Positions 533-64,000 of a stretch of DNA of 64,000 nt are shown here, in pieces. Position numbers and translations under genes: made by a program. The notes under the pieces are model-generated. The model saw only the letters and a list, made by a program, of their open reading frames with translations, was not told the origin of the DNA and made no database searches. This stretch comes from Clostridia bacterium. GTDB taxonomy: Bacteria > Bacillota > Clostridia > Christensenellales > DTU072. The DNA lies in contig JAZRZM010000009.1 of assembly GCA_045601385.1 (NCBI GenBank), positions 41,666 to 105,665 of the forward strand, read 5' to 3'. Position 1 is the stretch's first letter, and every line of letters begins with the position of its first letter.

Positions 533-2703
533 TGAAAAAAACAATCGAGATTGAGCCTTTTGCCTACGGCTATCTGAAAGCCAAGGGAGTCGATAAAGAG
601 ACGCGCATAGCGCGCGCGATTCGTTGCTATGCCGAAAACGTCGATATAAAAATCAACCCCAAAGAGCGTTTTGTCGGCAACACCTGTCGGGAGACGAAAA
701 TGGGCATCCGCTTTTGCTCCAACAGCGGTTTTTTATACGACGCCGGAGGCGCAAAACAGGTGACGAAAGACAATCCGCTACTTGCTTTGCCGCTTTCTTT
801 TCTTCGCCATCGGTGTTTTCCGCATATCGGAGAATTCATCAAGTATTGGCACGAAGACGGTAAGACGCATAAACTTGCGTTATATAAAAATCTTTGGGGC
901 GCGGGGAGTGGTCACGGGAACCCGGACTACAAATTGCTCCTCGATCTCGGCACGAACGGTCTGCGCGAAAAAATCGCCTCTTTCCGACTGAAAAACGCGG
1001 GCAAGGACGCCTTTTACGACGCGCTTGTCATGACGCTCGATTCTTTCGATATTCTGGCACGCAGGTATCGGGAGAAAGCCGAAAAAATGCTCGGAGAGGC
1101 AAAAAACGAAGAGGATAAGAGCGCACTGAAAAGGATCGTCGACGCCTTGGAGAATATACCCCAAAACAAACCGCGTAACTTCTTCGAAGCGTGCCAGGCT
1201 TTTTGGCTCGCCTTTTCTTTTTTGGAAATCGATTCGCCCGGATTGTTTGATTACGCTTTGGGAGAATATTATAAAAACGACGTTTCGGGTGACCGATATG
1301 ACAGTTTAGGGAAACTGTGGGAGTTGTTTCACAAAACGCGCTCGTGGAATTTGTGCGTGGGCGGCAGCGACGAAAACGGCAACGATTTATGCAACGAACT
1401 GACCTACGACGTCCTGAAAGTCGCCGCCGAAAAAAAATACAACACGCCGAATATCACGATGCGGTTTCATAAAAACTCGCCCGAAAAGGCGTGGGACAAA
1501 GCGATCGAAACGCTTTCTACGGGAATCGGCATGCCGGCTATATATAACGACGAGTGCGTGTGCGTCGCCTTGGAAAGGCTGGGCGTTACGCCGAAAGACA
1601 GTAGGCTGTATTGTATGAACGGATGCAACCAAATCGATATTTTCGGCAAGTCGCACATGGGGCTTGAAGACGGCGAAATCTGTGTGGCAAAGGCTCTTGA
1701 ATACACACTCTTTCACGGCAGATGCCGTTTTTTGAACCGTAAACTCGGGCTCGACTTGGGCGATCCGTCCTCTTTTAAGACGTTCGACGACTTTCTGGCG
1801 GCGTTTTACAAGGAGATCGATTATATGCTCGAAAAGGTGACGTCGGTCTCCAATGCGGCGCAGAAAATACATGCCGAATACAGTCCGAATCCGTGGCGGT
1901 CGTGTCTCATCGAAGGATGCGTCGAAAAAGGCGTGGACTATAAGCGCGGCGGTCCGATTTACGGACACGGACAGATCCTGACGGAGGCTTTGCCCGATAC
2001 GGTCGATTCTCTTGCCGCGATCAAACACTTTGTGTACGATGAAAAAAAATATACTTTGGTGCAACTCGTCGCCGCTTTGAAACGGAATTTTGTCGGGTGC
2101 CAAAAACTCTATAAAGACTTTTCCGGGTACCTTAAATTCGGAAACGATATACCCGAAGTCGATAAAATTTACAAGGAAGTGACCGAATACATATACGCTT
2201 CGCTCCAAACGTTTTCCACCTTCCGCGGCGGAAAATTCGGCGGCGGATGCAGTACGTACAACCGTGCCGCCGAATACGGCAGAAAACTCGGCGCGCTCCC
2301 GAACGGCAAAAAGAAAGGGGAGACGTTGCTTGCCGACAGTATCGGCGCCGTACCCGGTTGCGACAAAAAAGGTCCGACGGCGCTTCTTAACTCGGTGCTT
2401 TCCGCCGATCAGACGCTTGCTACCAGCGGAAACGTCTTGCAGATGAAGTTCGATAAAAAACAGTTTGGGACGGAAACGGGAAGGGAAGCCTTCAAGGCGC
2501 TTGCGAAAACGTATTTTTCGCAGGGCGGACAGACTTTGCAAATCAACGTCGTATCCAAAGAAGAATTGCTCGACGCAAAGGCTCACCCCGAGCGTCACGG
2601 CGATCTGATCGTGCGCGTGGGCGGTTTCAGCGAGTATTTTACAAGGCTCGAACCGGCTTTGCAGGATAATATCATTCAACGTTCGGAGAACGGTTTGCTG
2701 TAA
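532..2703 (+). CDS. glycyl radical enzyme, PFL2/diol-dehydratase-like clade (723 aa), substrate unknown
   Basis: C-terminal glycyl-radical fingerprint LIVRVGGFSEYF (Gly codon 2623-2625). Putative thiyl loop DSRLYCMNGCNQID (Cys codon 1624-1626). PFL2-type blocks FFEACQAFWL, GIGMPAIYNDE, DSLAAIKHFV, KFGNDIPEVD, GPTALLNSV, LQINVV. The activase gene follows after 2 nt. Confidence 0.9.
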   Translation: MKKTIEIEPFAYGYLKAKGVDKETRIARAIRCYAENVDIKINPKERFVGNTCRETKMGIRFCSNSGFLYDAGGAKQVTKDNPLLALPLSFLRHRCFPHIGEFIKYWHEDGKTHKLALYKNLWGAGSGHGNPDYKLLLDLGTNGLREKIASFRLKNAGKDAFYDALVMTLDSFDILARRYREKAEKMLGEAKNEEDKSALKRIVDALENIPQNKPRNFFEACQAFWLAFSFLEIDSPGLFDYALGEYYKNDVSGDRYDSLGKLWELFHKTRSWNLCVGGSDENGNDLCNELTYDVLKVAAEKKYNTPNITMRFHKNSPEKAWDKAIETLSTGIGMPAIYNDECVCVALERLGVTPKDSRLYCMNGCNQIDIFGKSHMGLEDGEICVAKALEYTLFHGRCRFLNRKLGLDLGDPSSFKTFDDFLAAFYKEIDYMLEKVTSVSNAAQKIHAEYSPNPWRSCLIEGCVEKGVDYKRGGPIYGHGQILTEALPDTVDSLAAIKHFVYDEKKYTLVQLVAALKRNFVGCQKLYKDFSGYLKFGNDIPEVDKIYKEVTEYIYASLQTFSTFRGGKFGGGCSTYNRAAEYGRKLGALPNGKKKGETLLADSIGAVPGCDKKGPTALLNSVLSADQTLATSGNVLQMKFDKKQFGTETGREAFKALAKTYFSQGGQTLQINVVSKEELLDAKAHPERHGDLIVRVGGFSEYFTRLEPALQDNIIQRSENGLL

Positions 2704-2705
2704 AA

Positions 2706-3554
2706 ATGGACGGTATCGTTTTTGACATTCAACGTTTTTCCATTCATGACGGTCCGGGGATTCGTTCGACCGTTTTTCTGAAAGGCTGCTCTTTGCGCTG
2801 TTTATGGTGTCATAATCCCGAATCTCAACTTTCGGCGCCCCAAATTGCCGTTTTTAAGCACAAGTGCGTCGGTTGCGGCGCGTGCGTGAAGATATGTGAA
2901 ATAGCCTTTTTGCATAACTGCGACGGATGTGGAAAATGCGCAGAGGTCTGTCCTGTCGGCGCGCGCGAAGTCATAGGCGAAAAAAAGACCGTCGAAGAAG
3001 TGTTTGATGAAGTTGTCCGCGACAAAGCGTACTACCGCACATCGGGCGGAGGCGTGACCGTATCGGGCGGAGAGCCGCTTTTGCAGGTGGAGTTTGTCGC
3101 CGCGCTTTTTTCGGAATGCAAGCGTGAAGGTATATCCACCGCTGTCGAGACGGCGGGGAACGTGCCGTGGGAAAAGATAGAGACCGTTTTGCCGACGTGC
3201 GACCTGTTTTTGTACGACGTCAAGTGCATGGACGAAGAAAAACATCGTCGGTTGACGGGGGCGAGCAACCGCCTGATTCTTGACAACGCCGAGCGGTTGA
3301 AAAAAACGGGTAAACGGATATTGTTCCGTATGCCCGTCGTGCCGGGGTACAACGACGACGAGGTGGAAAAAACGGCGGCTTTCTGCGGCGATTTTCCGTT
3401 GGAGATTCTTGCTTATCACGACACGGCGCGAAGTAAGTACGCCGCGATCGGCAGGGAGTATCCGATAAATGCGACCGCGTTGTCGCAGGACGAGATGACG
3501 CGTCTCGCAAAAAAAACGGGCGCGAGTTATAAGCCGACGGGGCTGAACGCCTGA
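2706..3554 (+). CDS. glycyl-radical-enzyme activating protein (radical SAM)
   Basis: FSIHDGPGIR followed by CSLRCLWCHNPES (CxxxCxxC). Two ferredoxin-type motifs, CVGCGACVKIC and CDGCGKCAEVCP. GGEPLL motif. Lies immediately downstream of the GRE. Confidence 0.92.
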   Translation: MDGIVFDIQRFSIHDGPGIRSTVFLKGCSLRCLWCHNPESQLSAPQIAVFKHKCVGCGACVKICEIAFLHNCDGCGKCAEVCPVGAREVIGEKKTVEEVFDEVVRDKAYYRTSGGGVTVSGGEPLLQVEFVAALFSECKREGISTAVETAGNVPWEKIETVLPTCDLFLYDVKCMDEEKHRRLTGASNRLILDNAERLKKTGKRILFRMPVVPGYNDDEVEKTAAFCGDFPLEILAYHDTARSKYAAIGREYPINATALSQDEMTRLAKKTGASYKPTGLNA

Positions 3555-3596
3555 AACGCCCGAAAACGGCTTAAAATTGTTTTTTGGTCAAAAATA

Positions 3597-3625
3597 TTGT
3601 ATTTTCCGAAAAAGTGTGCTAAAAT
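3597..3625 (+). promoter_or_regulatory. putative sigma-70 promoter for trkAH
   Basis: TTGTAT (3597-3602), 17-nt spacer, TAAAAT (3620-3625), with a TGn extended -10 (TGC 3617-3619). Sits 25 nt upstream of the trkA start. Confidence 0.5.
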
Positions 3626-3649
3626 ATCGTGCAAGGGAGAATGTGACTA

Positions 3650-4996
3650 TTGAAAATAATTATTGCGGGAGCCGGTAACGTAGGCGAAAGTCTGATAGCC
3701 GACTTAGCGGATGAAGAACACGATTTAGTCGTGGTGGACAGGGACGCCAATCTGGTGGAACGCCTGGTTGATTCTTACGACTTGCTCGGCGTCGTCGGTA
3801 ACTGCGTCAGCGCGGAGATTCTGCAAAAAGCGGGTGCGCCCGAAGCGAATCTCGTTATTGCCTGTACGCCGTACGACGAAATGAATATTCTTTGCTGTAT
3901 GGTGGCAAAGAAACTGGGCGTGTCGGAAACGATAGCGCGCGTGCGGAATCCCGAATATTTTTCCTTATTTAAGGACGTGGAACTGGGTCTTACCATGATG
4001 GTTAATCCCGAATACGAAACGGCGATGGAAATCAGCCGTTTGCTCCGCTTCCCTTCCGCGCTCAAAATGGAGCCTTTTGCCGGGGGCAGGGTGGAAGTTT
4101 TTGAACTGAAAGTTACCCCCGATTCGCCTTTTGTGGGTATGGCTATGCGCGAGATACAGGCGCGTTTTTCCATGAAACTGCTTATTTGCGCCGTCGAACG
4201 GAACGGAAACGTGTTTATCCCTAACGGCGACTTCCGACTGGAAGAGTGGGACGATATTTACGTCACGGCGACGCAGAAAGAGACGCTTTTATTGTTCAAA
4301 ACGCTCGGCATGCCGAGAAGCGCGAAAAAGGTATTGATCGCCGGCGGCGGTCGGACGGCGTTTTATCTTGCGAAAGAGTTGCGGAAAAACAACGTTTCGG
4401 TCAAAATCATCGAAAGCGACGAAAACCGCTGTGCGGAACTGGAAGAGGCGATCGACGGCGTCAACGTCATTTTGGGCGAACCCGCCGAGAGAGAAATTTT
4501 GCTTGACGAGGGGTTAAAAACGTCGGACGCGTTCGTGGCGCTGTGCGATATTGACGAAAAAAACATCATTATGTCCCTTTTTGCCGCGGATAACGGCGTG
4601 AAAAAAGTCGTTTCCAAGTCGGATAAGGCATTGTATGCCGACATACTCGACAAAAAAGAGCGTATCAGCAACGTGTCCGTTTATACTTCCACGGTCAACG
4701 AAATCATTCGTTATGTCCGCGGAAAGTCGTCTTCCGGCGCGGGGAAGTGCAACAAACTGTACCGCATGATCGATAATCGGGTGGAAATGATGGAGTTTTC
4801 CGTCTCGTCCGGGTTTGACGGGTTGGGCGTTCCGTTGAAATCGCTTGCTTTGCAAAAAGATATTCTGATCGCCGCTTTGCTACGGAAAAACGAATTGATT
4901 ATTCCGGGCGGTGAAGACAGTATTCTGGAAGGGGATACCGTTTTGCTCGTTACCACGAAGGAGTTTTCGGGCGATCTCAACGATATTTTGGAGTAA
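3650..4996 (+). CDS. trkA: Trk-system K+ uptake protein TrkA (NAD-binding regulatory subunit)
   Basis: TTG start 10 nt after GGGAGA. Two Rossmann motifs (KIIIAGAGNVG and KVLIAGGGRTAFYLA), each followed by a TrkA-C-like segment. trkH is adjacent. Confidence 0.92.
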   Translation: MKIIIAGAGNVGESLIADLADEEHDLVVVDRDANLVERLVDSYDLLGVVGNCVSAEILQKAGAPEANLVIACTPYDEMNILCCMVAKKLGVSETIARVRNPEYFSLFKDVELGLTMMVNPEYETAMEISRLLRFPSALKMEPFAGGRVEVFELKVTPDSPFVGMAMREIQARFSMKLLICAVERNGNVFIPNGDFRLEEWDDIYVTATQKETLLLFKTLGMPRSAKKVLIAGGGRTAFYLAKELRKNNVSVKIIESDENRCAELEEAIDGVNVILGEPAEREILLDEGLKTSDAFVALCDIDEKNIIMSLFAADNGVKKVVSKSDKALYADILDKKERISNVSVYTSTVNEIIRYVRGKSSSGAGKCNKLYRMIDNRVEMMEFSVSSGFDGLGVPLKSLALQKDILIAALLRKNELIIPGGEDSILEGDTVLLVTTKEFSGDLNDILE

Positions 4997-29043: not shown

Positions 29044-29080
29044 AAGGCTCCCGAATTTCTTTTTTCGGGAGCCTTTTTTT
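29044..29080 (+). terminator. rho-independent terminator between convergent genes
   Basis: Perfect 12-bp stem AAGGCTCCCGAA / TTCGGGAGCCTT, 8-nt loop, then T7. Confidence 0.8.
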
Positions 29081-38782: not shown

Positions 38783-41700
38783 TTATGCTACGGCGACGTT
38801 ATACGAGACGGCAAGAGAAATCGTATAGGTAACGGACGCGATATTGACGCGGTCGGTTATCGTCGCGATAATCGCGGTCGAACCGGAGTTCTGCGCGGTA
38901 ACGAGTCCGCTCGCATTAACGGCGGCGCAGGCGACGGAACTGCTTTGATAAGCGATCGACGTCGGCGCGTAGGCTTCGCCGTCCTTTTCAAAAGAAAGGG
39001 TATTGCGCGTCGTCGAACCGCGTGAAAGGACGACGGACGGATTCTCGAAGAAGGCGTAGATAAAGGTCGCGCCGTCGAGGGCGTCGTTGCCCGCTCCGAA
39101 CCGTGCTATGTCGTACGAGTCGCTGCCGACAATATATACGTAAAGAAGAGCGTCACAGCCCGAAAGAGCGTTTGCACCGACCGAGGTTACGCCGGACGAC
39201 ATACCGAGGAGTCGCAGATTTTCGCATCCGAAAAATGCCGATTGTCCGATCGTTTTTATGCTTGCGGGCAGGCTGACTACGGTCAGTTTAGCACAACCGT
39301 AGAACGCGCCTTCGGGCAGGGCGGTAAGACCGGTCGAGAAGGTCGCTTCTTCCAGAGCCGACGCGTTTTGGAAAGCGTACGAGCCAAGAGAAGTCAGCGT
39401 CGAGGGGAAAGCCACTCTCGTGACGGACGACTCGGCAAAAGCGTGTGTGTCGACGGACGTAAGCGTGGACGGCAGTTCGAGCAGACGAATCGAAGCGCGC
39501 ATAAAGGCGTACGCGCCGATTTTCGTAATGCCGGCGGCAAGAGATACCGAGGTCACGTAGGGGGCGTCCTTGGCAAGTTGGGTATACGTAAGGTATGCCG
39601 GGACAGTGGCAAGCGCGTCGAATCCGAACGCGATGCCGCTTTGTTTATCGCCCGAGCGGAAAAAGATCTCCGAGGAAGCGTTCAGCGTGATAAAGGCTTT
39701 CCAGGTTACCTTTTTCAGAGAAGTAAGGTACCCGAACGCTTTTGTCCCGATACTTGCCGAAGTAAAGGACGGCACCGACAGTTCGGTGACGGCGGTACAA
39801 CCGTAAAAGGCTTTTGTGCCGATCGACGTCAAAGACGACGGCAGGGTGACATACGTAAGCGCGACGCAGTCGGAGAACGCGCCCGTACCGACGGTCTTTA
39901 CTTTCGATCCGAACGTGACGACGGATAGATCCGCGCAGGAAAGGAAGGCGTAGTCGCCGACGGTGACGAGGTTCGACGGCAAGGAGATTTCGGGCAGAGA
40001 CGACATAGCGAAAGCGTATTTTCCGATAGAGGTCTGCGCCGAGCCGAACGTGACGCGCGACAGATTTTCGCACTGATAAAAGGCGTAGTCCGATACCGCG
40101 GCGACATTGTTTGAGAAAGTGATGTTTTTCAGAACGTAGTTTTTGGCGAAAGCGTATTTGTAGAGCGAATAGGTCGGATGGACTCTGTTGTATTCGCTCG
40201 GCATAACCGCGCTGCTTTCCTGCCCGATATAGCCGAGCAGATAGTATTCGCCGCCGACGTACATAAGCAGGAATTTTTTGTCGATTTCGTCGTCGAACTT
40301 CAATTCCGAAGCGTCCGTCGTGACGATACGCAAAGCGTATTTTGCCACGCTTCCGTAGTTGTTTTGTCCCATATTGAGCACGACCGAACTTATGTTGCGG
40401 ACTTCGACGAGTTTTTCGCAACCGACAAAGCAGTCCTCTTCGATTTCGCGTTTTCTTATTTTGCGGTACACTTTTTCGCCGTCGAAAGTATACGTCACCG
40501 AATTGACCGTCAGCGTGTGCGCCGCATGATTGATCGAGCCGACGTTTTTGAGAATCGTTCCGTCGTTTTCGTAAAAGTATTCGATTCCGCCGAGCGTGAT
40601 TTTTTGCAGTCCTTCGTCGATGACGCCGGCGTTCTGCAAGTTTTCGTCATACAGCATTCCGCCGTTGTACGAATAGTTGTTTTCGTTCAGAACGATCGAT
40701 TTTTCGACGGTATTGACCGAGCCGACCGCCGTTTTTATTTCGGTGCCGGACAGATAATAATCGACGTCGGAGACAGAAAAACGGTTTTCCGCCAAGAAAA
40801 TATCGCCGACGTACATATCGGTATAGATGCCCGTTTCGTCGCCGCTTTGACCGTACGAATAAGTAACGCTTCCTACGGTGAAACTCTTTTCGGCGACGTC
40901 GATGGCGCCGTGTTCGCGGTCGATATAGATTCCGCCGTCTTTCAGATAGTATTCTTCGTCGGCTGTGAGGATATCGTTATCGACGTCGATAAACGCGCCG
41001 TCTACGACGTAGTCGTGCGTTTTAGAAACGGACGAGTAGACTTTGTTTTGGTTGAAATACAGTTTCGTTTCGTCGATAAAGACGACGCCCGATTTCGGGG
41101 AAACGGTGATTTCGTCGGCGAGCGTGGCAAGGTCGCTCGACGTGTACACTTCGCCGCTTTCGTTGTAATAGTAGTAGGTCGAATAGACGCTGTACGTGTT
41201 GTTTTTTAGGCTGATCCGAACGCTCGACAAAATGTTTTTGAAATCCCTGTCGGCGTAAACGTAGCCGAATTTGTCGAAGTAATAAACGCTTCCGACGCTG
41301 ACTTTAACCGTCCCTTCCTGCGAAACGACGGCGCCGTTTACCTTGCTTATTTCGTTCATTTTGCGGTCGGTAAATACTTCGTATTTATCGTTATAATAAT
41401 AGGTCGCGAAAGGCACGTTGTACGCGCCGTCCGTCGTCGATACGCTCATACCGGCAATAAGGCTTGTTTTGCCGCTGTCCGAGTATACTTTTCCGGCGTC
41501 GTCGAAGTAGTACGTCGTACCGCCGTGCGTAAAGGAGTACCCGGTGCGGTTAAACGAGTTTGTCGTCAGAGCGTGCTTGTCCTGGTCGGCGTAGACGAGA
41601 TCGTTCGTATAGTAAAAACGGTCGTAAACGGTGCAAGTCTTTGCCGTCGTGTCGAACGAAACGTGTTTTTCCTGCGTCGTCAGGGCGTTCGACGTGTAAA

Positions 41701-44700
41701 CGGTTCCGTCCGTCACGTAAGAAAGCGAACGCATGGTCGGGAAGACGAAGTAGCCGTTCGAGCGGCACACGTATGCGCCCGCGTATTCGTCGGACATCGC
41801 CGGGTCTGTATAAACGGGCGCTTTGGCAAGCGCGCTGTTGAAGTAGTACGTCGTGCCGTTCATCATAAGGGTGGACGGCGTGGCGATCACGTTTATTTTG
41901 TATTTGTCGGCGTCGAGCAGCGCGTCGGGCGTTTTTGCATAACTTGTATATACGTTGTTGCCGTTGAAGAAATAAACGACGTTGATCGGGAGAGTGGCGT
42001 CGCGCGCGATACCCATGTTTTCCACGGGAGAACCCGTCAGCGCTTCGTTCGTATAGTATTTTCCGTCCTGTCCCGCGAAGTAGCGCGTCGTATGGACGGA
42101 ATAGGTCATCTCGTTTACGTCGATTTCGGTGCCGCCGACGCGGTTTGTCAAAGCGGCGTCACGGTAGACAAAGCCGTTATCGGTGTAATAATAAGTGACG
42201 TCCGTCGGGAAAGCGATCGTTTTCAGTGTCGTATTGATGCCCGACGAAGAGTCGATACGCGTCGTCGTGCCGTACGAATAGATATAACCGTTCGTCGCGT
42301 CGTAAGAATAACTGTTTCCGTTCAGAATGAAAACGCGGTTGGTCAGGTCGATAGAGGCGTCTTCGACGGGTTTGTATTTCGTTTGGTCGTAATAGATTTT
42401 TCCGTCGGCGCCGTAATAATACAGAGGATGTTCGGTAATCGTCAGCGTCTTGGATACGCGCATACCGTCGATAAGGGCGGTTTTTGCCGAATCGGAATAA
42501 ACTTTTCCGTCGCCGTCGTAATAATACGTTTTGCCGAGCACGTTAAACGACGTGGAAATCGCGTTCATCAGACTGCCCGAGTAGTTGTTTCTTCTTTCGC
42601 TGTCGGCAAACATACTGCCCGTACTGTCAAAGTAATAAGATAACGCTTCGGGCAGGTAAACGCTTTTTACTTTCTTGAAGTCGTCGTTAAAGTCGATATA
42701 CGCGCCGACCAAGGGCTTTTCGCCGATAAAGACGGCGCATTTTTCGCCGTAATAGTAGGTCGTGCCGTCGATTGCGTAGGAATTATCGGCTTCGCTAACG
42801 GAAGCGTTTTCGACGACGAGCGTTTTCGTCGAATTACCGTAAACGGTCGCGCCGTCGTAATAATAGGTGTACATCATCGGCATAACGATCGATTTTGCCG
42901 ACGTATCGATGGACGCGCCGACATAGGGAGACTGATTTTCCCGATCGAAGTAGACTGCCGAGCCGTTATAGTAATACGACGCCCCGCCGGGTACGACGAT
43001 GAAAGACCGCGAAGCGGTGTTGATGCTCGTGTTCAGAATTCTGTTGTGCAGACCGACGTCGGAATAAATGGCTCCGGCGGTGTTGTAATAGTAAGTAACG
43101 GTCCCGGCATAGGTAAATTTCTTTTCGGACGGATCGAAACAGACGTCTTCGACCTGAACCGTTTTTTCCGCGTTTGCGAATACGGCGCGTTTGTTTTTAT
43201 CGAAAGTGTAGACCTTTTGTCCGATTTCGATGACGCCGTCCGTTACCGATATCGAAGAGGCGGGGAGGGCGTAAGGCGAATCGAGCGAGGGATCGGCGTA
43301 CAAAGTACCGTCGTCGTAATAATAATCGACGTCGTTTAAGGTGAACGTGAGGTCGCTCTTGTTGATCGTGCCCACGTTGTCCGGTCCGTAAATCGTGCCG
43401 CTGTCGCCGTAATAATAGGTCGTACTGCCGAGCGTAAGGCTTCGCGCGGATACGTCGATCGTGCCCTCATTACCGTTCAGTCCGCTGCCGAGGAGAACGG
43501 TAACAAGGTTAATGCAGTTCCGAAAAGCGCCCACGCCGAGAGAGGCGACGGCGTTACCGACGGTCAAAGAATACATAAGGTAACACTCGGCAAAGGCGTA
43601 TTCGCCGACCGTTTTCGTGCCGCCCGGCAGGACCGTTTCGATAAGCCCCGTATGGAAAAAGGCGTAACGGGGGATCTCTTTGAGGGCGGAAGAAAATTCT
43701 ACCGAGCGCAGACCGGTGCAATTATAGAAAGCGTATTCGCCGACCGAACGCAGTTCTCCGCCGACGGTAAGGGCGGTCGAAGAGCAGTTGAAGAAAGCGT
43801 ATTTTCCGACGTTTTCGACCGAAGAAGAAAGAGTAACCGTTTGCAAAGAAGAACATTCGTAGAAAGCGTATTCGGGTATGGCGTCGCAGGAAATGACGTT
43901 GACGGCGGTAAGGGACGGGGGAAGAACGAGCGCGTTTTGCTCATAACCGTCCGCGCCGAACAAGAACCCGAGATAGCCTTCTTCGTTTTTCGATTTGCCG
44001 ACGACGGGCAAGGTAAGATCGACCAGTTTCGTGCAGGTGTCCAGAAGATGCGCGCCCATTGTGCGCACGCTGTCGGGGAAGGTCAGCGAAGTGAGATCGA
44101 CGCATTTTTCAAAGGCTTTGTCGGCGATTACCACGGTGTTTGCCTGTACCGACAGTTTCGTCACAGCCGTTTCTTTCGTCGGAGCGACTTCGATCAGATA
44201 GTATTTTTCGCCGTCATCGTCCCTTGTGGGCAGGTATAACGAGACGTTGTTCCAGTTCTTTTTATCGTTGTAAAAAGCGGTGTTATAAAAAGCCTTTTCG
44301 CCGACAGAACGGACGGAAAGGGACATATCGATCGTTTCGAGGGTGGCGCAGTCGGCAAAGGCGTTCTTTCCGATGGATTCGACGGAGGACGGAATGACCA
44401 GGTTTACCATTTGCGGATAGTAAGAACTCATCGCGAAAGCGAAGTCTCCGACGGCGTAGGAAGTCACTTTTTTGCCGTTACAATCAAACGTAAGGGGGAG
44501 AGAAATCTCCGTCCGCGACGTCTGTTTGTAGCCGATAAGATAACCTTTTTCGTCGTAGTAAGCATAGACAAAGTCGTCGTCCGAGTCGATCACGGTCGGC
44601 GCGGAAAAATCGTCGGTATGTACGACGGTGGCGGAAAAATCGGCGGAGCCGTCGTTGGGACGGTACACTTCGAAGATATGGGTGTTTTTCAGAATATCGT

Positions 44701-47212
44701 TTTCTTCCGAAACGCCGCCCCGATAGGAGAACGAACGCAGTTGAGCGCAGTTTTCAAACGCGCCGTCGCCGACGTAAGTCAAACCGGCGGGAAGTGCGAC
44801 CGAAAGGAGCAGGGGACAGTCGGAAAACGCGAACGCGCCGATCTCGGACAGGTTCGACGCGGACGAAAAATCAACGTCCCGAACGGCGAGACAGGAGCGA
44901 AAAGCCTCTCTTCCTATGTGCGTCAATTCGGCGCAGAGGGTGACGGAGGTCATCCCGAGGCAGGCGCGACAGGCGTCGTTTGCGATCAGTCTCGTTCCGT
45001 TTCGTAAAGTAAGCGCGCCTTCGAAGGTCGGCTTGACTTTCAGAAGGACGTCGCCTGCGTAAATCGCGTCGCCCGGAGCCGATTGCAAAAACGCCGTTTC
45101 TTCAAAAGCGTTTTTACCGATATCGGTCAGGACGGTCGCGCTCGTCATGTCGACGTCCGCAAGAGAGGAGCAACCGTAAAAGGCGAAAGATCCGATCGTT
45201 TTGACCGAAGCGGGAATGACGACGGAACTGACGTCGGTATGTAAAAAGGCGTATTCGCCGATATTTTTCAGAGAAGAGGGCAAAGAAAGAGCCCCGCCGA
45301 GGGCGGAATCGGCAAAGGCATAGCCGCCGATATAGGTCGCTGCGGACGGCAGCGTAACCGTCGTAAGGGCGGCGCAGTTTTCAAAGACGCTTTCTTCGAC
45401 GCTACCGAGAGCCGTTCCGTTCAGATAAGCCGTTTCCAAAGAAACGTCGCCCTGGAAGGCGTTGCGACGGAGCGTGGTCAGGTTGGTCAGAAGAGAAAAG
45501 TCGATTTCGGTAAGATTGACGCACCCGGCAAAAGCCGCGATGCCGACAGAAACCGTTTCGACAGGCAAAATAAGGTTGCACAGGCTCGGGCAGTTATTGA
45601 AAGCGTAATTGCCGATCGCGGTAATCGAAGACGGCAGGTACGCTCCGGAAACGGGCGTTTCGTCATTGTAGAGTCTGACGTCGGAAAGGAGAGCGCACCC
45701 GGCGAAAAGGAAATCGCCGACGGACGTTATTTCGTCGGCAAGGAAGACGTGCGCGATCGCCGTCTGATAAGAAGCCCACGGCACGCTTGACGCGGAGGCA
45801 TAGTTCTTCGTCTTGCCCGTCCCTTTGACGACGAGGTCGTATTTATCCTCGTTGTCGAACAAATAGGCGTTTATTTCGTCGCGGTTTTTGTCGGCGGAAA
45901 TATCCCAGGTGCGTCTGACCGAACCGGTATCGACGTTTCCGCATTCTTTGCAAATGTGGTTCTTATATTCGTGGCTGTGCGCGGTCGCGACGATGCGCGC
46001 CGTTTTTTGTCGGCTGACAAGTCCGCAGAAACGGCATTCGTAATAATTATATTGATCGGTAAGGCAGGTCGCCGGCGAAGCCACCACGTCCGAAACGACG
46101 GTAAAGAGGTGCGCGCCCGTCGCCGTGTCGGGGACGGTTACCGTTTTTGACGTGTCGACCATACCGCACGTTTTGCATCGGGCGTATTCGACGCGGTCGT
46201 CTACGCAGGTGGCGTCGCTTGCCACAAAACCGCTCGGCTCGGAAAAGTCGTGCAGATTCGTCGCCGTCCCTTCCACTTCGTATACGAGGTTAATATCGTT
46301 GCTGGGCAGTCCGCAGTCGGCGCAAACGAGATAATAGATGTCGTTGTGACCGCAGTCGGCGGCTTTGCACAGGTGTTCTTTGTTTTTGACGGTAAACCGA
46401 TGCGGAAGACGGGAATCCGGCACGACGAACGTCTTTGTCGCGGAGCGGAACACCGCGCCGCAGACGACGCACGCGCAGTAGTCCTCCCGATCGGAAGTGC
46501 AGGTGGCTTGCTTGGCTGTAATACCGCTGTCGGCGGTGTAAAGATGCTCTCCGTTTGCGGTGTCGGGGACTTCGTAAACGTCTTTTTCGTCGCGGCTTAC
46601 TTCGTGACAAACGGCGCAGGAGTGATAGCGCAGTTCGTTTTCAGTGCAGATTGCCGGACGGAAAACGGAGTCGCTTTCCGCCGAAAAGTTATGTCCGACA
46701 GCCCGTATGACTTTCCCTTCGATAAGAACTTCGCGGCAGTCGAGACAGATTTTGTCTCCCGTATAGCCGTCTTCGGTACAGGTCGGGGCAAGATATCTTG
46801 TAAGAGCCGTCGCCTTGTGCTCGCACGTCGGGCGGATTTCTCCGCCGGGCGTTTGTTCTTCCCCTTTTTCCGTCATATCGGTCAGTACGGAAAACGAATC
46901 GCCTTCGAGGGCGACGTACAGCGTGTCGGGAGAGGACAAAAGGACGTTATCTTCTTCGGTGACGCTGAGAATCACGTTTTTATCGGTGCCGGTGTAAGAG
47001 CCTTTGCGGTAGTGCGTGTTCCGCTCGTCGTCGAGATAAATGTGCATAAACGTGCCGCCTTGCAGTTGCAGCGTGCCGTTTGTCGGAGAAAAATACGTAC
47101 CGTCTTCACGTACGGTTTGCTCGGGCGGCGTATCCTCGTTTGTGCACGATGAAAAAATCGGCAAACAGACCGCCAAAACGATGCAAACAAAAAGTATTAT
47201 TTTCTTTTTCAT
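38783..47212 (-). CDS. giant (2809 aa) surface lipoprotein: His/Cys modules, BspA-type LRR block, Tyr-rich repeat region, second LRR block, C-terminal Big_2 domain
   Basis: Signal peptide with lipobox-like FSSC. About 6 H-x(12-16)-C-x(8-10)-C-x2-C modules (about 45890-46840). LRR_5 units (about 43660-45770 and 39060-40460). About 28 units with a tYYYd..G.vY.d core (about 40460-43460). Big_2-like AAVNASGLVTAQNSGSTAIIATI (38786-39040). GGAGA RBS and a consensus promoter upstream. Confidence 0.9.
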   Translation of the reverse strand: MKKKIILFVCIVLAVCLPIFSSCTNEDTPPEQTVREDGTYFSPTNGTLQLQGGTFMHIYLDDERNTHYRKGSYTGTDKNVILSVTEEDNVLLSSPDTLYVALEGDSFSVLTDMTEKGEEQTPGGEIRPTCEHKATALTRYLAPTCTEDGYTGDKICLDCREVLIEGKVIRAVGHNFSAESDSVFRPAICTENELRYHSCAVCHEVSRDEKDVYEVPDTANGEHLYTADSGITAKQATCTSDREDYCACVVCGAVFRSATKTFVVPDSRLPHRFTVKNKEHLCKAADCGHNDIYYLVCADCGLPSNDINLVYEVEGTATNLHDFSEPSGFVASDATCVDDRVEYARCKTCGMVDTSKTVTVPDTATGAHLFTVVSDVVASPATCLTDQYNYYECRFCGLVSRQKTARIVATAHSHEYKNHICKECGNVDTGSVRRTWDISADKNRDEINAYLFDNEDKYDLVVKGTGKTKNYASASSVPWASYQTAIAHVFLADEITSVGDFLFAGCALLSDVRLYNDETPVSGAYLPSSITAIGNYAFNNCPSLCNLILPVETVSVGIAAFAGCVNLTEIDFSLLTNLTTLRRNAFQGDVSLETAYLNGTALGSVEESVFENCAALTTVTLPSAATYIGGYAFADSALGGALSLPSSLKNIGEYAFLHTDVSSVVIPASVKTIGSFAFYGCSSLADVDMTSATVLTDIGKNAFEETAFLQSAPGDAIYAGDVLLKVKPTFEGALTLRNGTRLIANDACRACLGMTSVTLCAELTHIGREAFRSCLAVRDVDFSSASNLSEIGAFAFSDCPLLLSVALPAGLTYVGDGAFENCAQLRSFSYRGGVSEENDILKNTHIFEVYRPNDGSADFSATVVHTDDFSAPTVIDSDDDFVYAYYDEKGYLIGYKQTSRTEISLPLTFDCNGKKVTSYAVGDFAFAMSSYYPQMVNLVIPSSVESIGKNAFADCATLETIDMSLSVRSVGEKAFYNTAFYNDKKNWNNVSLYLPTRDDDGEKYYLIEVAPTKETAVTKLSVQANTVVIADKAFEKCVDLTSLTFPDSVRTMGAHLLDTCTKLVDLTLPVVGKSKNEEGYLGFLFGADGYEQNALVLPPSLTAVNVISCDAIPEYAFYECSSLQTVTLSSSVENVGKYAFFNCSSTALTVGGELRSVGEYAFYNCTGLRSVEFSSALKEIPRYAFFHTGLIETVLPGGTKTVGEYAFAECYLMYSLTVGNAVASLGVGAFRNCINLVTVLLGSGLNGNEGTIDVSARSLTLGSTTYYYGDSGTIYGPDNVGTINKSDLTFTLNDVDYYYDDGTLYADPSLDSPYALPASSISVTDGVIEIGQKVYTFDKNKRAVFANAEKTVQVEDVCFDPSEKKFTYAGTVTYYYNTAGAIYSDVGLHNRILNTSINTASRSFIVVPGGASYYYNGSAVYFDRENQSPYVGASIDTSAKSIVMPMMYTYYYDGATVYGNSTKTLVVENASVSEADNSYAIDGTTYYYGEKCAVFIGEKPLVGAYIDFNDDFKKVKSVYLPEALSYYFDSTGSMFADSERRNNYSGSLMNAISTSFNVLGKTYYYDGDGKVYSDSAKTALIDGMRVSKTLTITEHPLYYYGADGKIYYDQTKYKPVEDASIDLTNRVFILNGNSYSYDATNGYIYSYGTTTRIDSSSGINTTLKTIAFPTDVTYYYTDNGFVYRDAALTNRVGGTEIDVNEMTYSVHTTRYFAGQDGKYYTNEALTGSPVENMGIARDATLPINVVYFFNGNNVYTSYAKTPDALLDADKYKINVIATPSTLMMNGTTYYFNSALAKAPVYTDPAMSDEYAGAYVCRSNGYFVFPTMRSLSYVTDGTVYTSNALTTQEKHVSFDTTAKTCTVYDRFYYTNDLVYADQDKHALTTNSFNRTGYSFTHGGTTYYFDDAGKVYSDSGKTSLIAGMSVSTTDGAYNVPFATYYYNDKYEVFTDRKMNEISKVNGAVVSQEGTVKVSVGSVYYFDKFGYVYADRDFKNILSSVRISLKNNTYSVYSTYYYYNESGEVYTSSDLATLADEITVSPKSGVVFIDETKLYFNQNKVYSSVSKTHDYVVDGAFIDVDNDILTADEEYYLKDGGIYIDREHGAIDVAEKSFTVGSVTYSYGQSGDETGIYTDMYVGDIFLAENRFSVSDVDYYLSGTEIKTAVGSVNTVEKSIVLNENNYSYNGGMLYDENLQNAGVIDEGLQKITLGGIEYFYENDGTILKNVGSINHAAHTLTVNSVTYTFDGEKVYRKIRKREIEEDCFVGCEKLVEVRNISSVVLNMGQNNYGSVAKYALRIVTTDASELKFDDEIDKKFLLMYVGGEYYLLGYIGQESSAVMPSEYNRVHPTYSLYKYAFAKNYVLKNITFSNNVAAVSDYAFYQCENLSRVTFGSAQTSIGKYAFAMSSLPEISLPSNLVTVGDYAFLSCADLSVVTFGSKVKTVGTGAFSDCVALTYVTLPSSLTSIGTKAFYGCTAVTELSVPSFTSASIGTKAFGYLTSLKKVTWKAFITLNASSEIFFRSGDKQSGIAFGFDALATVPAYLTYTQLAKDAPYVTSVSLAAGITKIGAYAFMRASIRLLELPSTLTSVDTHAFAESSVTRVAFPSTLTSLGSYAFQNASALEEATFSTGLTALPEGAFYGCAKLTVVSLPASIKTIGQSAFFGCENLRLLGMSSGVTSVGANALSGCDALLYVYIVGSDSYDIARFGAGNDALDGATFIYAFFENPSVVLSRGSTTRNTLSFEKDGEAYAPTSIAYQSSSVACAAVNASGLVTAQNSGSTAIIATITDRVNIASVTYTISLAVSYNVAVA

Positions 47213-61559: not shown

Positions 61560-61588
61560 TTGACTTTTTTTTGCGCGAAACGTATAAT
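61560..61588 (+). promoter_or_regulatory. consensus sigma-70 promoter of the mgtE transcription unit
   Basis: TTGACT (61560-61565), 17-nt spacer, TATAAT (61583-61588). Predicts a ~200-nt leader. Confidence 0.7.
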
Positions 61589-61623
61589 GGAATAAAAATA
61601 AATTTTTATAAGGAGGTAGACAA

Positions 61624-61710
61624 ATGGAATCCGCAAGTAGTACGGGCACAGACGGCAGTTGTTTAAGCGACGTTCCTTTGCAGACGACGTTTGTTGCCTT
61701 GCGTTTTTGA
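61624..61710 (+). CDS. candidate 28-codon leader ORF in the mgtE 5' leader
   Basis: AAGGAGG (61610-61616), 7 nt, then ATG. Encodes MESASSTGTDGSCLSDVPLQTTFVALRF, stop TGA 61708-61710. No homology evidence. Confidence 0.35.
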   Translation: MESASSTGTDGSCLSDVPLQTTFVALRF

Positions 61711-61795
61711 AGCGTTACTCTTTTTTGTAATCAATAAATAACGGTCGTCCGTTGCCCTCTTACGTCTTTTTTGTCTTAAAAGAGGAGGTCAATTT

Positions 61796-63184
61796 ATGGA
61801 TGAAGAAATTATTTTTTCATTGCTTGAACAAAAGAATTTCAAGGAATTGAAGCCCATCCTTGCCGAAATGAACGGCGCGGACGTGGCGCAGGTTCTCGCT
61901 GACGTCAGCGAGACGGATTTGCCCATTGTCTTTCGGCTTTTGCCCAAAGATCTTGCCGCGGAAACTTTCGTCGAGATGGACAGCGACATGCAGGAGTCGC
62001 TTGTCAGACGTTTTTCCGATAAAGAATTAAAGCAGATCGTCGAAGAACTGTACGTAGACGACGCCGTCGATCTGATCGAAGAAATGCCGGCGAGCCTTGT
62101 CAGAAGAATTTTGCAACAAGCCGATCCGGAAACGCGCAAAGAAATCAACGCGATTTTGCAATACCCCGACGACAGCGCCGGGTCGATTATGACGACCGAG
62201 TACGTTTGTCTCAACGAGCAAATGACCGTCGAAGAGAGTTTTGCCCGTATCCGCGCCACCGGCGTCGATAAAGAGACGATCTATACCTGCTATGTCATCG
62301 ACGAGTGCCGCCGACTGAAAGGACTCGTCACCGTCAAAGATCTTTTGCTTCATTCGTACGAAACGAAAATAGAAGATATTATGGAGACGAACGTCATCTA
62401 TATCGAAACGCACGCCGACCGCGAAGACGCGGCGAGGATGTTCGATAAGTACTCTTTCCTTGCTATGCCCGTCGTCGATAAAGAAGTCAGGCTCGTCGGT
62501 ATCATCACCATCGACGACGCTATGGACGTCCTTACCGAAGAAGCGAGCGAAGATATCACGAAGATATCCGCTATCTCCTCCAAAGCGGCGGAAAAACCCT
62601 ATTTCAAGCAAACGACCTGGGATATCTACCGCTCCCGCATTATTTGGCTTGCTATCCTGATGCTCAGTTCCACTTTTTCGGGTATGGTCATCACGGCAAA
62701 CGAGCGCACGCTCACTTATTCCGCCTACGCTACCTTGCTTACCGCATGTATTCCCATGATAACGGGTACGGGCGGAAACTCGGGCAGTCAGGCATCCGTT
62801 TCCGTCATTCGGGGTATCGCATTGGGCGAAATCGAGTTCAAAGACATATTCAAAGTCATGTGGAAAGAATTCCGCGCGTCTCTTCTGATCGGCTTGACGC
62901 TCGGCATTATCTGCTTTCTGAAACTCATTCTCGTCAACGGCATCCTGACCGTCGATTACGGCGCGGGTAACAGCAGCGGCGTGCTTGTCGGTCTGACCAT
63001 TTGCGGCACGGTCGCGCTGACCGTCGTCATCAGCAAAATCATCGGCTGTATCCTGCCCTTGCTTGCAAAAAAATGCAAACTCGATCCCGCCGTCGTCGCC
63101 AGTCCCTTTATCTCCACCATCATCGACACCGTCTCCCTGCTGATCTACTGCGGCTTGTCTATGCTGATTTTGGCAAACGTCTGA
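61796..63184 (+). CDS. mgtE: magnesium transporter MgtE
   Basis: MgtE N-domain, tandem CBS region, and a TM domain with the signature GTGGNSGSQAS. AGAGGAGG RBS. Confidence 0.95.
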   Translation: MDEEIIFSLLEQKNFKELKPILAEMNGADVAQVLADVSETDLPIVFRLLPKDLAAETFVEMDSDMQESLVRRFSDKELKQIVEELYVDDAVDLIEEMPASLVRRILQQADPETRKEINAILQYPDDSAGSIMTTEYVCLNEQMTVEESFARIRATGVDKETIYTCYVIDECRRLKGLVTVKDLLLHSYETKIEDIMETNVIYIETHADREDAARMFDKYSFLAMPVVDKEVRLVGIITIDDAMDVLTEEASEDITKISAISSKAAEKPYFKQTTWDIYRSRIIWLAILMLSSTFSGMVITANERTLTYSAYATLLTACIPMITGTGGNSGSQASVSVIRGIALGEIEFKDIFKVMWKEFRASLLIGLTLGIICFLKLILVNGILTVDYGAGNSSGVLVGLTICGTVALTVVISKIIGCILPLLAKKCKLDPAVVASPFISTIIDTVSLLIYCGLSMLILANV

Positions 63185-63193
63185 TTTTTTTAT

Positions 63194-63222
63194 CCCCACA
63201 AAATGCGGTGCATTTTGTGGGG
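63194..63222. repeat. perfect 13-bp inverted repeat (hairpin) directly after mgtE
   Basis: CCCCACAAAATGC-GGT-GCATTTTGTGGGG. No downstream T-tract, so it is not a canonical terminator. Confidence 0.8.
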
Positions 63223-63237
63223 AGCCCCGATATTATG

Positions 63238-63960
63238 TCCCAAAAAACGCAAGCCGTTTTTCGGGGAGCCCGTGCTTTTGCGCCCTTTGTCAAAAGGGAG
63301 AGCGTCTGCGCCTAAAAGCGTAAGCGATGGCGCGGAGAGGGTTTTCCCGAGACAAAACTATGCCAAGCGGTATGATATTTACAGCATAAAGCGGACTTCT
63401 TTCTCGTTAAAAACCCCCATTCCCAAAACGTAGACGTTTTGGCAATCAAGCCCCCTTTTGAGAAAGGGTGTAAATTTGCCCCAAAAAACGCAAGCCGTTT
63501 TTCGGGGAACCCCGTGCTTTTGCGCCCTTTGTCAAAAGGGAGATCGTCTGCCGACCTTGGTCGAGAGAGAGGGTTTTCCACGAGATAAAACTACGGCAAG
63601 CGGTATGATTGATTATTCCTTACATAAAAAAAGGTTCTTTCTCGCTAAAAACCCCCATTTTTCGTCGTAAACTCCGAAAAATCAAGCCCCCTTTTGAAAA
63701 GGGTGTAAAAACAAGTGTTTTCTCATTAAAAACCCCCATTTTTCGTCGCTCGCGTCTCGGGGAGTCCGTGCTTTTGCGCCCTTTGTCAAAAGGGAGAGCG
63801 TCCGGAGCGGAGCGAGGGAGAGGGTTTTCCACGCGATAAAACTGTGCCAAACGGTATGATATTTACAGCATAAATCAGACTTTTTTCCCGTTAAAAACCC
63901 CCATTCCCAAAACGCTTACGTTTTGGCAATCAAGCCCCCTTTTGAGAAAGGGTGTAAGTC
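63238..63960. repeat. three tandem ~245-bp hairpin-rich direct repeats (array continues to the window edge)
   Basis: The core GTGCTTTTGCGCCCTTTGTCAAAAGGGAG recurs at 63272, 63514 and 63768. The flanking blocks (AAAAACGCAAGCCGTTTTTCGGGGA, AGGGTTTTCC, AAAAACCCCCATT, CAAGCCCCCTTTTGA.AAGGGTGTAA) recur in the same order. Confidence 0.85.
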
Positions 63961-64000
63961 AATTTTGGGGTTTATTATCGGGGCTCCCGGAAAAATCGTC

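Follow-up and report, generated by a model that had tools for sequence, protein, structure and literature searches.

In this study, we analyzed a repeat array at the right end of a 64-kb stretch of Clostridia DNA (contig JAZRZM010000009.1), which is called the window throughout and to whose 64 kb all in-window absences and statements of uniqueness refer. The array starts 9 nt past the stop codon of the magnesium transporter gene mgtE and comprises three hairpin-rich units, which are probably gene-less copies of a selfish palindromic element whose complete form carries a DUF559 nuclease gene. Protein P0001, encoded on an NCBI contig of 164.7 kb, is 100% identical to the MgtE of the window.

The 29-nt core GTGCTTTTGCGCCCTTTGTCAAAAGGGAG is present exactly at positions 63272, 63514 and 63768 and nowhere else in the window, with direct-repeat periods of 242 and 254 nt, and it matched in none of 100 shuffles, which places its recurrence far beyond chance. 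The three units show a mean column identity of 79%, and units 1 and 3 share 90% identity across 135 nt. An earlier, sequence-only reading of this DNA had described these direct units together with a 13-bp inverted repeat, GGGAGCCCCGATA, which we recovered on the + strand at 63220-63232 and on the - strand at 63976-63988 (two matches in 0 of 100 shuffles) and which forms the core of a 34-nt inverted repeat with 79% identity. It had also reported a perfect hairpin after the mgtE stop (here H0), which is present with a 14-bp stem and a 3-nt loop at 63193-63223 rather than with 13 bp at 63194-63222, a trivial difference; two alternative self-complementary stems at one position, CCAAAACG/CGTTTTGG in units 1 and 3 and ATTTTTCG/CGAAAAAT in unit 2, exactly as found here; and a lack of consistent coding, which was borne out in all six frames. 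H0 is a 67% paralogue of the hairpin that lies between units. In addition, unit 2 contains a 43-nt partial duplication, whose duplicate stands in place of the inter-unit hairpin ahead of unit 3 and looks like a recombination scar, and the window closes on 15 nt that resemble an inverted H0 copy cut off after its 5' arm.

Comparison with relatives in other genomes and metagenomes led us to regard smaller modules, not the ~245-bp unit, as the basic element. We read the unit as two inversely oriented modules of ~60-70 nt with two hairpins each, of which alpha lies on + and beta on -; the array holds six modules, three alpha and three beta, and a module profile (nhmmer) found none elsewhere in the window. 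On its sense strand, a module runs from TTTRCRCCCTTT-loop-AAAGGGRG through a variable hairpin to a G-tract with a TTTT end. We distinguished a Clostridial alpha type (GAKCGTC...GGAGAGGGTTTT), a Clostridial beta type (GCTTGATT...AATGGGGGTTTT) and a GGGAGAGGG-GGGTGAGGG type, and insertions in the first loop of modules are themselves stem extensions. Between units stands the gamma hairpin, CCCC-A-tract...T-tract-GGGG followed by GGGGANCCC, a type also found at the loci L066, L067, L036 and L061. Since the modules are inverted, both CCCTTT/AAAGGG hairpins of a unit can pair with each other, and the long-range pairing AGGGTTTT/AAAACCCCC marks where the unit's two inverted modules join (Table 1).

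Table 1. Positions of mgtE and of the parts of the downstream array in the window.
Feature	Position	Strand	Evidence
mgtE magnesium transporter gene	61796..63184	+	Pfam MgtE_N, CBS, MgtE domains
Gamma-type hairpin H0, then GGGGAGCCC	63193..63227	+	direct/inverted repeat analysis
Left arm of array-bounding 34-nt inverted repeat, incl. exact 13-mer GGGAGCCCCGATA	63212..63245	+	
Gamma hairpin of unit 1, CCCAAAAAACG-caagc-CGTTTTTCGGGG, plus AGCCC	63239..63271	+	
Alpha module 1: TTTGCGCCCTTT-GTCA-AAAGGGAGAGCGTC, variable hairpin, GGAGAGGGTTTT	63277..63347	+	pattern extraction; nhmmer E=4e-11
Unit 1 spacer between inverted modules	63348..63406	none	
Beta module 1, - strand reading TTTACACCCTTT-CTCA-AAAGGGGGCTTGATT, hairpin, AATGGGGGTTTT	63407..63474	-	nhmmer E=2e-13
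Gamma hairpin of unit 2 plus AACCCC	63479..63513	+	
Alpha module 2, variable hairpin CGACC-tt-GGTCG	63519..63579	+	nhmmer E=3e-13
Unit 2 spacer	63580..63644	none	
Beta module 2, alternative hairpin ATTTTTCG...CGAAAAAT	63645..63709	-	nhmmer E=5e-9
43-nt partial duplicate (86%) of 63625-63667	63706..63748	+	
Alpha module 3	63773..63830	+	nhmmer E=4e-8
Unit 3 spacer, 90% identical to unit 1 spacer	63831..63890	none	
Beta module 3	63891..63958	-	nhmmer E=4e-13
Right arm of bounding inverted repeat (63963-63996), then inverted gamma-type hairpin start CCCGGAAAAATCGTC, cut by window end	63963..64000	-	

Contrary to the possibility, raised by the sequence-only reading, that the units are unique to this locus, the same modules were recovered in other genomes and metagenomes. 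As exact words, the 29-mer core had no match in the genome contig collection and a 21-mer had none in the metagenome contig collection, and neither the word AATCAAGCCCCCTTTTGA nor the degenerate three-block pattern matched in viral contigs; the sole viral match of the 21-mer (L002) was dismissed as chance, lying within a 722-aa ORF (open reading frame) with unrelated flanks. The degenerate core pattern gave 14 matches in genomes, about the chance expectation, and only two of these are real, namely L003 and L009, two contigs of the goat-rumen Clostridia metagenome-assembled genome (MAG) RGIG3541, which show the same block order with different hairpins. Matches L004, L008, L014 and L015 proved on reading to be coding DNA, and L005-L007, L010-L013 and L016 were discarded as belonging to unrelated phyla with a total at chance level. 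A three-block pattern, built from features common to the window species and RGIG3541, detected 49 metagenome loci. Group A among them (L026, which is the same as L057, L036, L043-L046 and L061, on rumen-type metagenome contigs) carries full alpha/beta units that occur in tandem, solo and in both orientations, the latter even within L026, while group B carries a single 48-nt module relative on AT-rich contigs; L023, L027 and L055 look like chance matches in coding DNA. The spacer between the inverted modules measures 3 nt in L044 and L046, ~60 nt in the window and ~150 nt in L003 and L009, and in L026 it is a whole DUF559 ORF. Modules elsewhere adjoin unrelated genes, including a 16S rRNA gene, a purine riboswitch and many others, irrespective of the direction of the neighbour. 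L067 and L069 represent one locus from two samples (99.6-99.8% identity), and L067 has one additional unit of 352 nt (3393-3745), which is either a unit-number polymorphism or the result of assembly collapse in the shorter contig.

Two of these loci deserve a separate description. In L046, the alpha/beta unit with the 3-nt spacer (4420-4570) is situated ~250 nt downstream of a complete 16S rRNA gene (2660-4169). In L003, four direct copies of an AT-rich motif of ~50 nt, AAACTWATCAAACGTCTTTATTGAAA..., occupy 1500-1700 on the - strand, beyond both repeat units and just 5' of the next gene.

Full-length relatives of the units contain a gene of 117-124 aa for DUF559, a Vsr-like PD-(D/E)XK nuclease, exactly between two inverted modules. 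The ORF sits precisely at the GGGTTTT/AAAACCC tip, where ORF-less units hold 3 to 150 nt, and in many cases the ORF's stop codon shares bases with AAAACCCCC of the module that follows. A complete ORF lies between an alpha-like and a beta module in L026, among modules in L044, and between inverted modules in the group B locus L049 (the same as L033), and each of these ORFs belongs to DUF559 (PF04480, E down to 2e-24). The units of the window have no ORF and encode no such nuclease, whereas their relatives encode it with an intact active site: D-F...E-x-D-G..H and two R are invariant, and the ORFs match the DUF559 structure 3hrl in the PDB (E=6e-14). DUF559 has been placed in a single clade together with Vsr and with I-Bth0305I, a homing endonuclease (PMC3424549).

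Because loci selected by a motif are biased, a protein-first search was also conducted from homologues of the L044 ORF. These homologues were mostly on contigs shorter than 2 kb, as expected because repeats break assemblies, and eight of the nine DUF559 proteins that were looked up had hairpin/G-tract modules beside the gene. Among the Clostridia-type proteins (identity to the L044 ORF in brackets), the order of modules (M) is M+beta, ORF, M-alpha, M-beta, M+alpha in L066 (68%); M+beta, gamma, ORF in L067-L069 (70%), where the stop overlaps AAAAACCCCC of M-alpha; and alpha/beta unit, ORF, M-beta in L070-L077 (59%). In L078 (60%), GGGGGTTTT is followed after 4 nt by the ATG, and the stop TAA runs into AAACCCCC. 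In Omnitrophota (L079, 48%), a hairpin and GGTTAGGGTGAGGGGTT precede the ATG and an inverted copy follows; in Pseudomonas (L083, 34%), the 3' end of the ORF itself encodes CCCTCACCCC-AA-CCCTCTCCCC-AAA-GGGGAGAGGG, with an inverted copy 150 nt on; and in L086 and L088 (42-45%), inverted hairpin plus GGGTGAGG modules are found on both sides. The ninth gene, from a Prevotella MAG (L080, 1501-1893; 41%), has a pyruvate:ferredoxin oxidoreductase subunit gene on either side, with a distance of 45 nt to the upstream one and an overlap with the downstream one, is also found on ~1-kb contigs, and looks like a free-standing selfish gene inside an operon.

A nearly identical motif, the hairpin CCCCTCTCC/GGAGAGGGG plus GGGTGAGGGG, stands in inverted orientation on both sides of DUF559 genes from Omnitrophota (L079, 1450-1500/1845-1895), from Pseudomonas sp. 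MTM4 (L083, 1560-1600/1750-1790) and from two AT-rich genomes (L086 and L088, both 520-565/960-1005). That the motif is conserved in different phyla points to a recognition site or to horizontal spread.

We consider, with a probability of about 0.6, that the array consists of three ORF-less copies of a selfish element resembling repetitive extragenic palindromic (REP) sequences and miniature inverted-repeat transposable elements (MITEs), that its full form is a module, a DUF559 gene and an inverted module, and that the DUF559 nuclease is its partner. As in MITEs, the units are ~215-245 bp long, consist of inverted module pairs and have no ORF, and the array is bounded by the 34-nt inverted repeat; as in REPs and bacterial interspersed mosaic elements (BIMEs), imperfect palindromes form inverted doublets and clusters, with pairs three times after mgtE and in both orientations in L026 and L044. 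The anatomy, the family, the association with DUF559 and the difference in unit number were observed directly; by analogy with the Vsr-clade homing endonucleases and with the REP-associated tyrosine transposase (RAYT) and its REPs, we infer mobility, cleavage, a copying mechanism and any effect on RNA as follows. First, a DUF559 nuclease encoded elsewhere in the genome would recognise module DNA and nick or cut it. Second, recombinational repair would then copy modules, with or without the ORF, to other sites in a homing- or gene-conversion-like manner, following the same logic as RAYT on REP/REPIN sequences. Third, unequal recombination or slippage between modules could produce tandem amplification of units. 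In addition, transcripts reading through from mgtE would carry the hairpins in the 3' untranslated region (UTR), where they might exert a REP-like effect on mRNA stability.

The organisation shares features with several known systems. The REP/BIME/REPIN repeats and RAYT of Proteobacteria likewise comprise short imperfect palindromes that are solitary, paired as inverted doublets or clustered in tandem just 3' of genes, and one or few protein genes per genome are flanked by inverted repeats and outnumbered by non-autonomous copies. In contrast, the partner here is a DUF559 Vsr-like PD-(D/E)XK nuclease and not a Y1/HUH (IS200/IS605-like) transposase, and neither a transposase nor a RAYT was found beside modules at any locus examined; moreover, the modules measure 60-90 nt with two hairpins and a G-tract, whereas a REP is one 20-40-nt hairpin with a GTAG head, and the six modules form one array in 64 kb, whereas REPs are much denser, with hundreds per genome. 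MITEs, Correia/NEMIS, RUP and pneumococcal BOX elements are also gene-less, shorter than 300 bp, strongly folding, intergenic and multi-copy with inverted ends; like MITE-type repeats, the present ones look like deletion derivatives of an ORF-bearing element, and BOX is modular too, with a variable number of internal subunits. For the present elements, however, neither a DDE transposase parent nor a target-site duplication was found, and their ORF-bearing form carries a ~120-aa nuclease only. Vsr-like (EDxHD) homing endonuclease genes such as that of I-Bth0305I encode nucleases of the same PD-(D/E)XK clade as DUF559 (PMC3424549; PMC3239194) and are small selfish ORFs at one precise site of a conserved sequence, here the palindrome tip, but the present ORF lies outside any intron or intein, its putative target is a repeated palindromic element, and the PADLOC match to HEase is weak (E 5e-4 to 9e-3). 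Tandem structured repeats are associated with a small nuclease gene in type III toxin-antitoxin systems (ToxIN) as well, yet ~245-bp inverted module pairs stand here against ~36-nt direct repeats, these units flank the ORF on either side and recur at many loci that lack it, and the nuclease fold is Vsr-like, not ToxN/AbiQ.

Several observations weigh against this interpretation. No DUF559 gene was detected in the window by tblastn, and a 120-aa nuclease cannot transpose alone. Direct repeats indicative of a target-site duplication were absent from the module ends in the window, L026, L044, L066, L067 and L070, and no empty site for the array locus was found. The arrangement of modules around the ORF varies, being M+ ORF M- in L026, L066, L067 and L078, M- ORF M+ in L049, L086 and L088, and different again in L044 and L070, and the Prevotella gene has no flanking modules at all. 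With no further module in the window, the density is far below that of classical REPs. The nearest mgtE relative (L001, 68% identity) shows no array in the 77 nt after the gene. Finally, hairpin conservation is equally compatible with RNA and with single-stranded or cruciform DNA.

It is conceivable but unlikely that the units are instead structured RNAs, that is, tandem non-coding RNA (ncRNA) genes or one long 3' UTR, which may serve as RNA partner, regulator or substrate of DUF559; in a variant of this idea, a terminal loop would harbour the ORF, just as group I introns harbour homing-endonuclease genes in theirs. Compared with shuffles, the entire array folds far better on either strand (z -6.5 on + and -8.3 on -), and hairpins are retained family-wide through wholesale sequence change: among 39 modules from 14 sources, 36 different sequences were counted at the second hairpin, nearly all with 7-11-bp stems, a mean z of -2.6 against shuffles and 22 of 36 below -2. 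The long-range pairing TTTGCGCCCTTT/AAAGGGTGTAAA uses G:U on the + strand only, and the ORF is placed exactly at the tip of the long helix made by two modules. RAP/FASTK proteins exemplify Vsr-like folds that can act on RNA. One published title also describes a Vsr-like protein with mRNA as its target (PMC11879112). The claim of the sequence-only reading that structure is kept while sequence changes was thus upheld across the family, but within the window it is weak, where one hairpin is swapped wholesale and the other variable predicted pairs are mostly broken, not compensated; the three window units alone are uninformative as to covariation.

Other evidence counts against RNA. Rfam release 15 gave no match for the window at gathering score, the check which the earlier reading had proposed (best in the region at E<=10, 15.9 bits versus a cut-off of 70), and no match on the element in nine relatives even at E<=1. 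Promoter- and terminator-like sites were not enriched (1 promoter-like versus 0.8 expected; 3 overlapping terminator-like versus 2.4 expected), and the unit 1 spacer holds the sole sigma-70-like match of the region, GAGACA-16-TATGAT. H0 is not a canonical intrinsic terminator, because its T-run (TTTTTTTA) precedes the stem and no T-run follows it on either strand; units as small RNA genes or as intrinsic terminators were rejected on these two grounds. Both unit orientations occur within one locus, neighbouring gene direction is disregarded, a short module relative is in frame within coding sequences, and alpha and beta of one unit are more stable on opposite strands, the sense orientation of a module folding slightly better than its complement (-9.2 versus -7.2 kcal/mol). 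Since the sense of the two modules lies on opposite strands in every unit, a DNA-level element fits better than a single transcript, although a small G:T strand asymmetry in module hairpins (11 versus 6) does not decide between RNA and DNA. Of the two identities that the sequence-only reading had offered, the REP/MITE-like one is favoured by modules at unrelated loci, the flanking nuclease genes and the difference in unit number, whereas the ncRNA one gained no specific support. For contrast with H0, a canonical terminator of the source genome is located at 29044-29075 and is followed by TTTTT.

It seems quite improbable that the array is explained as a host-retained cis element of mgtE, in which a stack of 3'-UTR hairpins would increase mRNA stability or act as an insulator of convergent transcription, in the manner of REP/BIME sequences; such a role would be compatible with a selfish origin, which would then have no bearing on what the array does now. 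REP sequences protect upstream mRNA, the array begins immediately after mgtE, the lack of a U-tail on H0 makes read-through from mgtE likely, and the right edge is the inverted left edge, as expected between convergent genes. In contrast, L001 is the closest mgtE locus available and has no array, for which reason synteny of the array with mgtE was rejected; the same modules stand beside unrelated genes, and the invariant core of 29-31 nt is left unexplained by a need for hairpins alone. Chance similarity is hardly credible, and so is an artefact of assembly, for instance a repeat collapsed or chimerically joined where a contig ends: the window ends 12 nt past the inverted repeat and repeats of the same family break assemblies elsewhere, but the source contig extends over 164.7 kb, the same architecture appears in independent assemblies of other samples, and differences of 10-25% between units, with indels and a hairpin swap, are not those of duplicated reads.

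The REP/MITE-like reading with a DUF559 partner may extend beyond Clostridia. In E. coli K-12 (NC_000913.3; L085, 1351000-1351830), ycjD, the type gene of DUF559, ends inside a CCCTCTCCC...GAGGGGG hairpin, and the motif GGGGAGAGGGTTAGGGTGAGGGG occurs 170 nt downstream, where the stretch reads CCCCTCGCCCCTCTGGGGAGAGGGTTAGGGTGAGGGG. The adjoining repeat consists of the hairpin CCCCTCT/GGGGAGAGGG followed by TTAGGGTGAGGGG; its 71-nt stretch is present at a median of 16 places per genome in 5426 E. coli genomes, and the same 23-nt motif flanks the DUF559 genes of Omnitrophota and Pseudomonas. This repeat is probably BoxC, which was reportedly first described near envM/fabI, an identification based on that location and on copy number and not on sequence comparison. 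BoxC measures 56 bp and has about 22-32 copies (PMC2267715). A hairpin plus GGGAGAGGGGGTTTT likewise closes the alpha module of Clostridia, but the likeness to the window modules is limited to the theme of hairpin, GGAGAGGG and G-tract, homology being at most putative.

Short relatives of group B, 48-70 nt long and of the form GTCGCCCTTTTCAAGGGAGATGTCC-loop-GGACAGAGGGTTTT, are inserted in frame into conserved protein genes of uncultured bacteria with AT-rich DNA, where they occupy the opposite strand and add 15-17 residues (...KTLCP..DISLEKGD... or ...NPLSS..DISLEKGD...). They were found in TrmD-like genes (L021, L025, L062, L051, L054, L059, L035) and in class II ribonucleotide reductase (RNR)-like genes (L020, L034, L039, L050, L052, L063, L037), at the same site in diverged orthologues and with covarying hairpin stems. 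In this they resemble the Rickettsia palindromic elements (RPE), although the likeness concerns group B only and not the intergenic array of the window, and there is no sequence relation. A literature search on in-frame palindromic elements in the Candidate Phyla Radiation (CPR) found no papers.

We tentatively suggest, at somewhat less than even odds, that DUF559 proteins, including E. coli YcjD, are dedicated nucleases of a cross-phylum superfamily of short hairpin-plus-G-tract repeats. Among its members would be the arrays of Clostridia described here, the GGGGAGAGGG-TTAGGGTGAGGGG elements found in E. coli (probably BoxC), in Pseudomonas and in Omnitrophota, and the 48-nt in-frame element of trmD- and nrdJ-like genes. 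Few parts of bacterial genomes are as poorly understood as dispersed palindromic repeats, and to our knowledge only the REP family has a known partner enzyme, RAYT; DUF559, for its part, is a very common bacterial domain of unknown function. If these proposals hold, the modules and DUF559 would represent a second, independent partnership of a nuclease with palindromic repeats, RAYT-REP-like or homing-like, with the array of the window as one non-autonomous product. A function could then be proposed for this very common domain, there would be an explanation for orphan repeats like the multi-copy one next to ycjD in E. coli, and a new small sequence- or structure-specific nuclease would await characterisation. 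The connection between DUF559 and repeats is directly testable in E. coli with YcjD and the neighbouring repeat, and in annotation such arrays should be marked as repeat elements and not as candidate ncRNA genes. Our literature search, which also covered Vsr-like homing endonucleases but mostly lacked subscription journals, found no paper linking DUF559 or YcjD to repeats, and an earlier description is possible.

Other candidate identities of the array were rejected. A short - strand ORF recurring in the units (MGVFNEKE...) translates the conserved TAAAAACCCCCAT, lacks a Shine-Dalgarno sequence and shows non-synonymous changes and early stops. A CRISPR array was dismissed, because the 29-nt core recurs only every 242/254 nt and the intervening DNA is itself repeated, and iterons, attC sites, retrons and type III toxin-antitoxin loci were dismissed on spacing and architecture. 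A defence system was also rejected, PADLOC giving weak nuclease-domain matches only (mREase_II, DpdF, HEase).

Two further observations concern the surroundings of the array. An M-box (Mg2+) riboswitch is common upstream of mgtE in Firmicutes, but none was found upstream of the present gene (61564-61795), and no Rfam family reached gathering score anywhere in the window. In addition, a 2809-aa ORF on the - strand (38783-47212) contains nine BspA-type leucine-rich repeat stretches (PF13306, E=9e-177) and encodes a giant surface protein of a kind typical of gut and rumen anaerobes.

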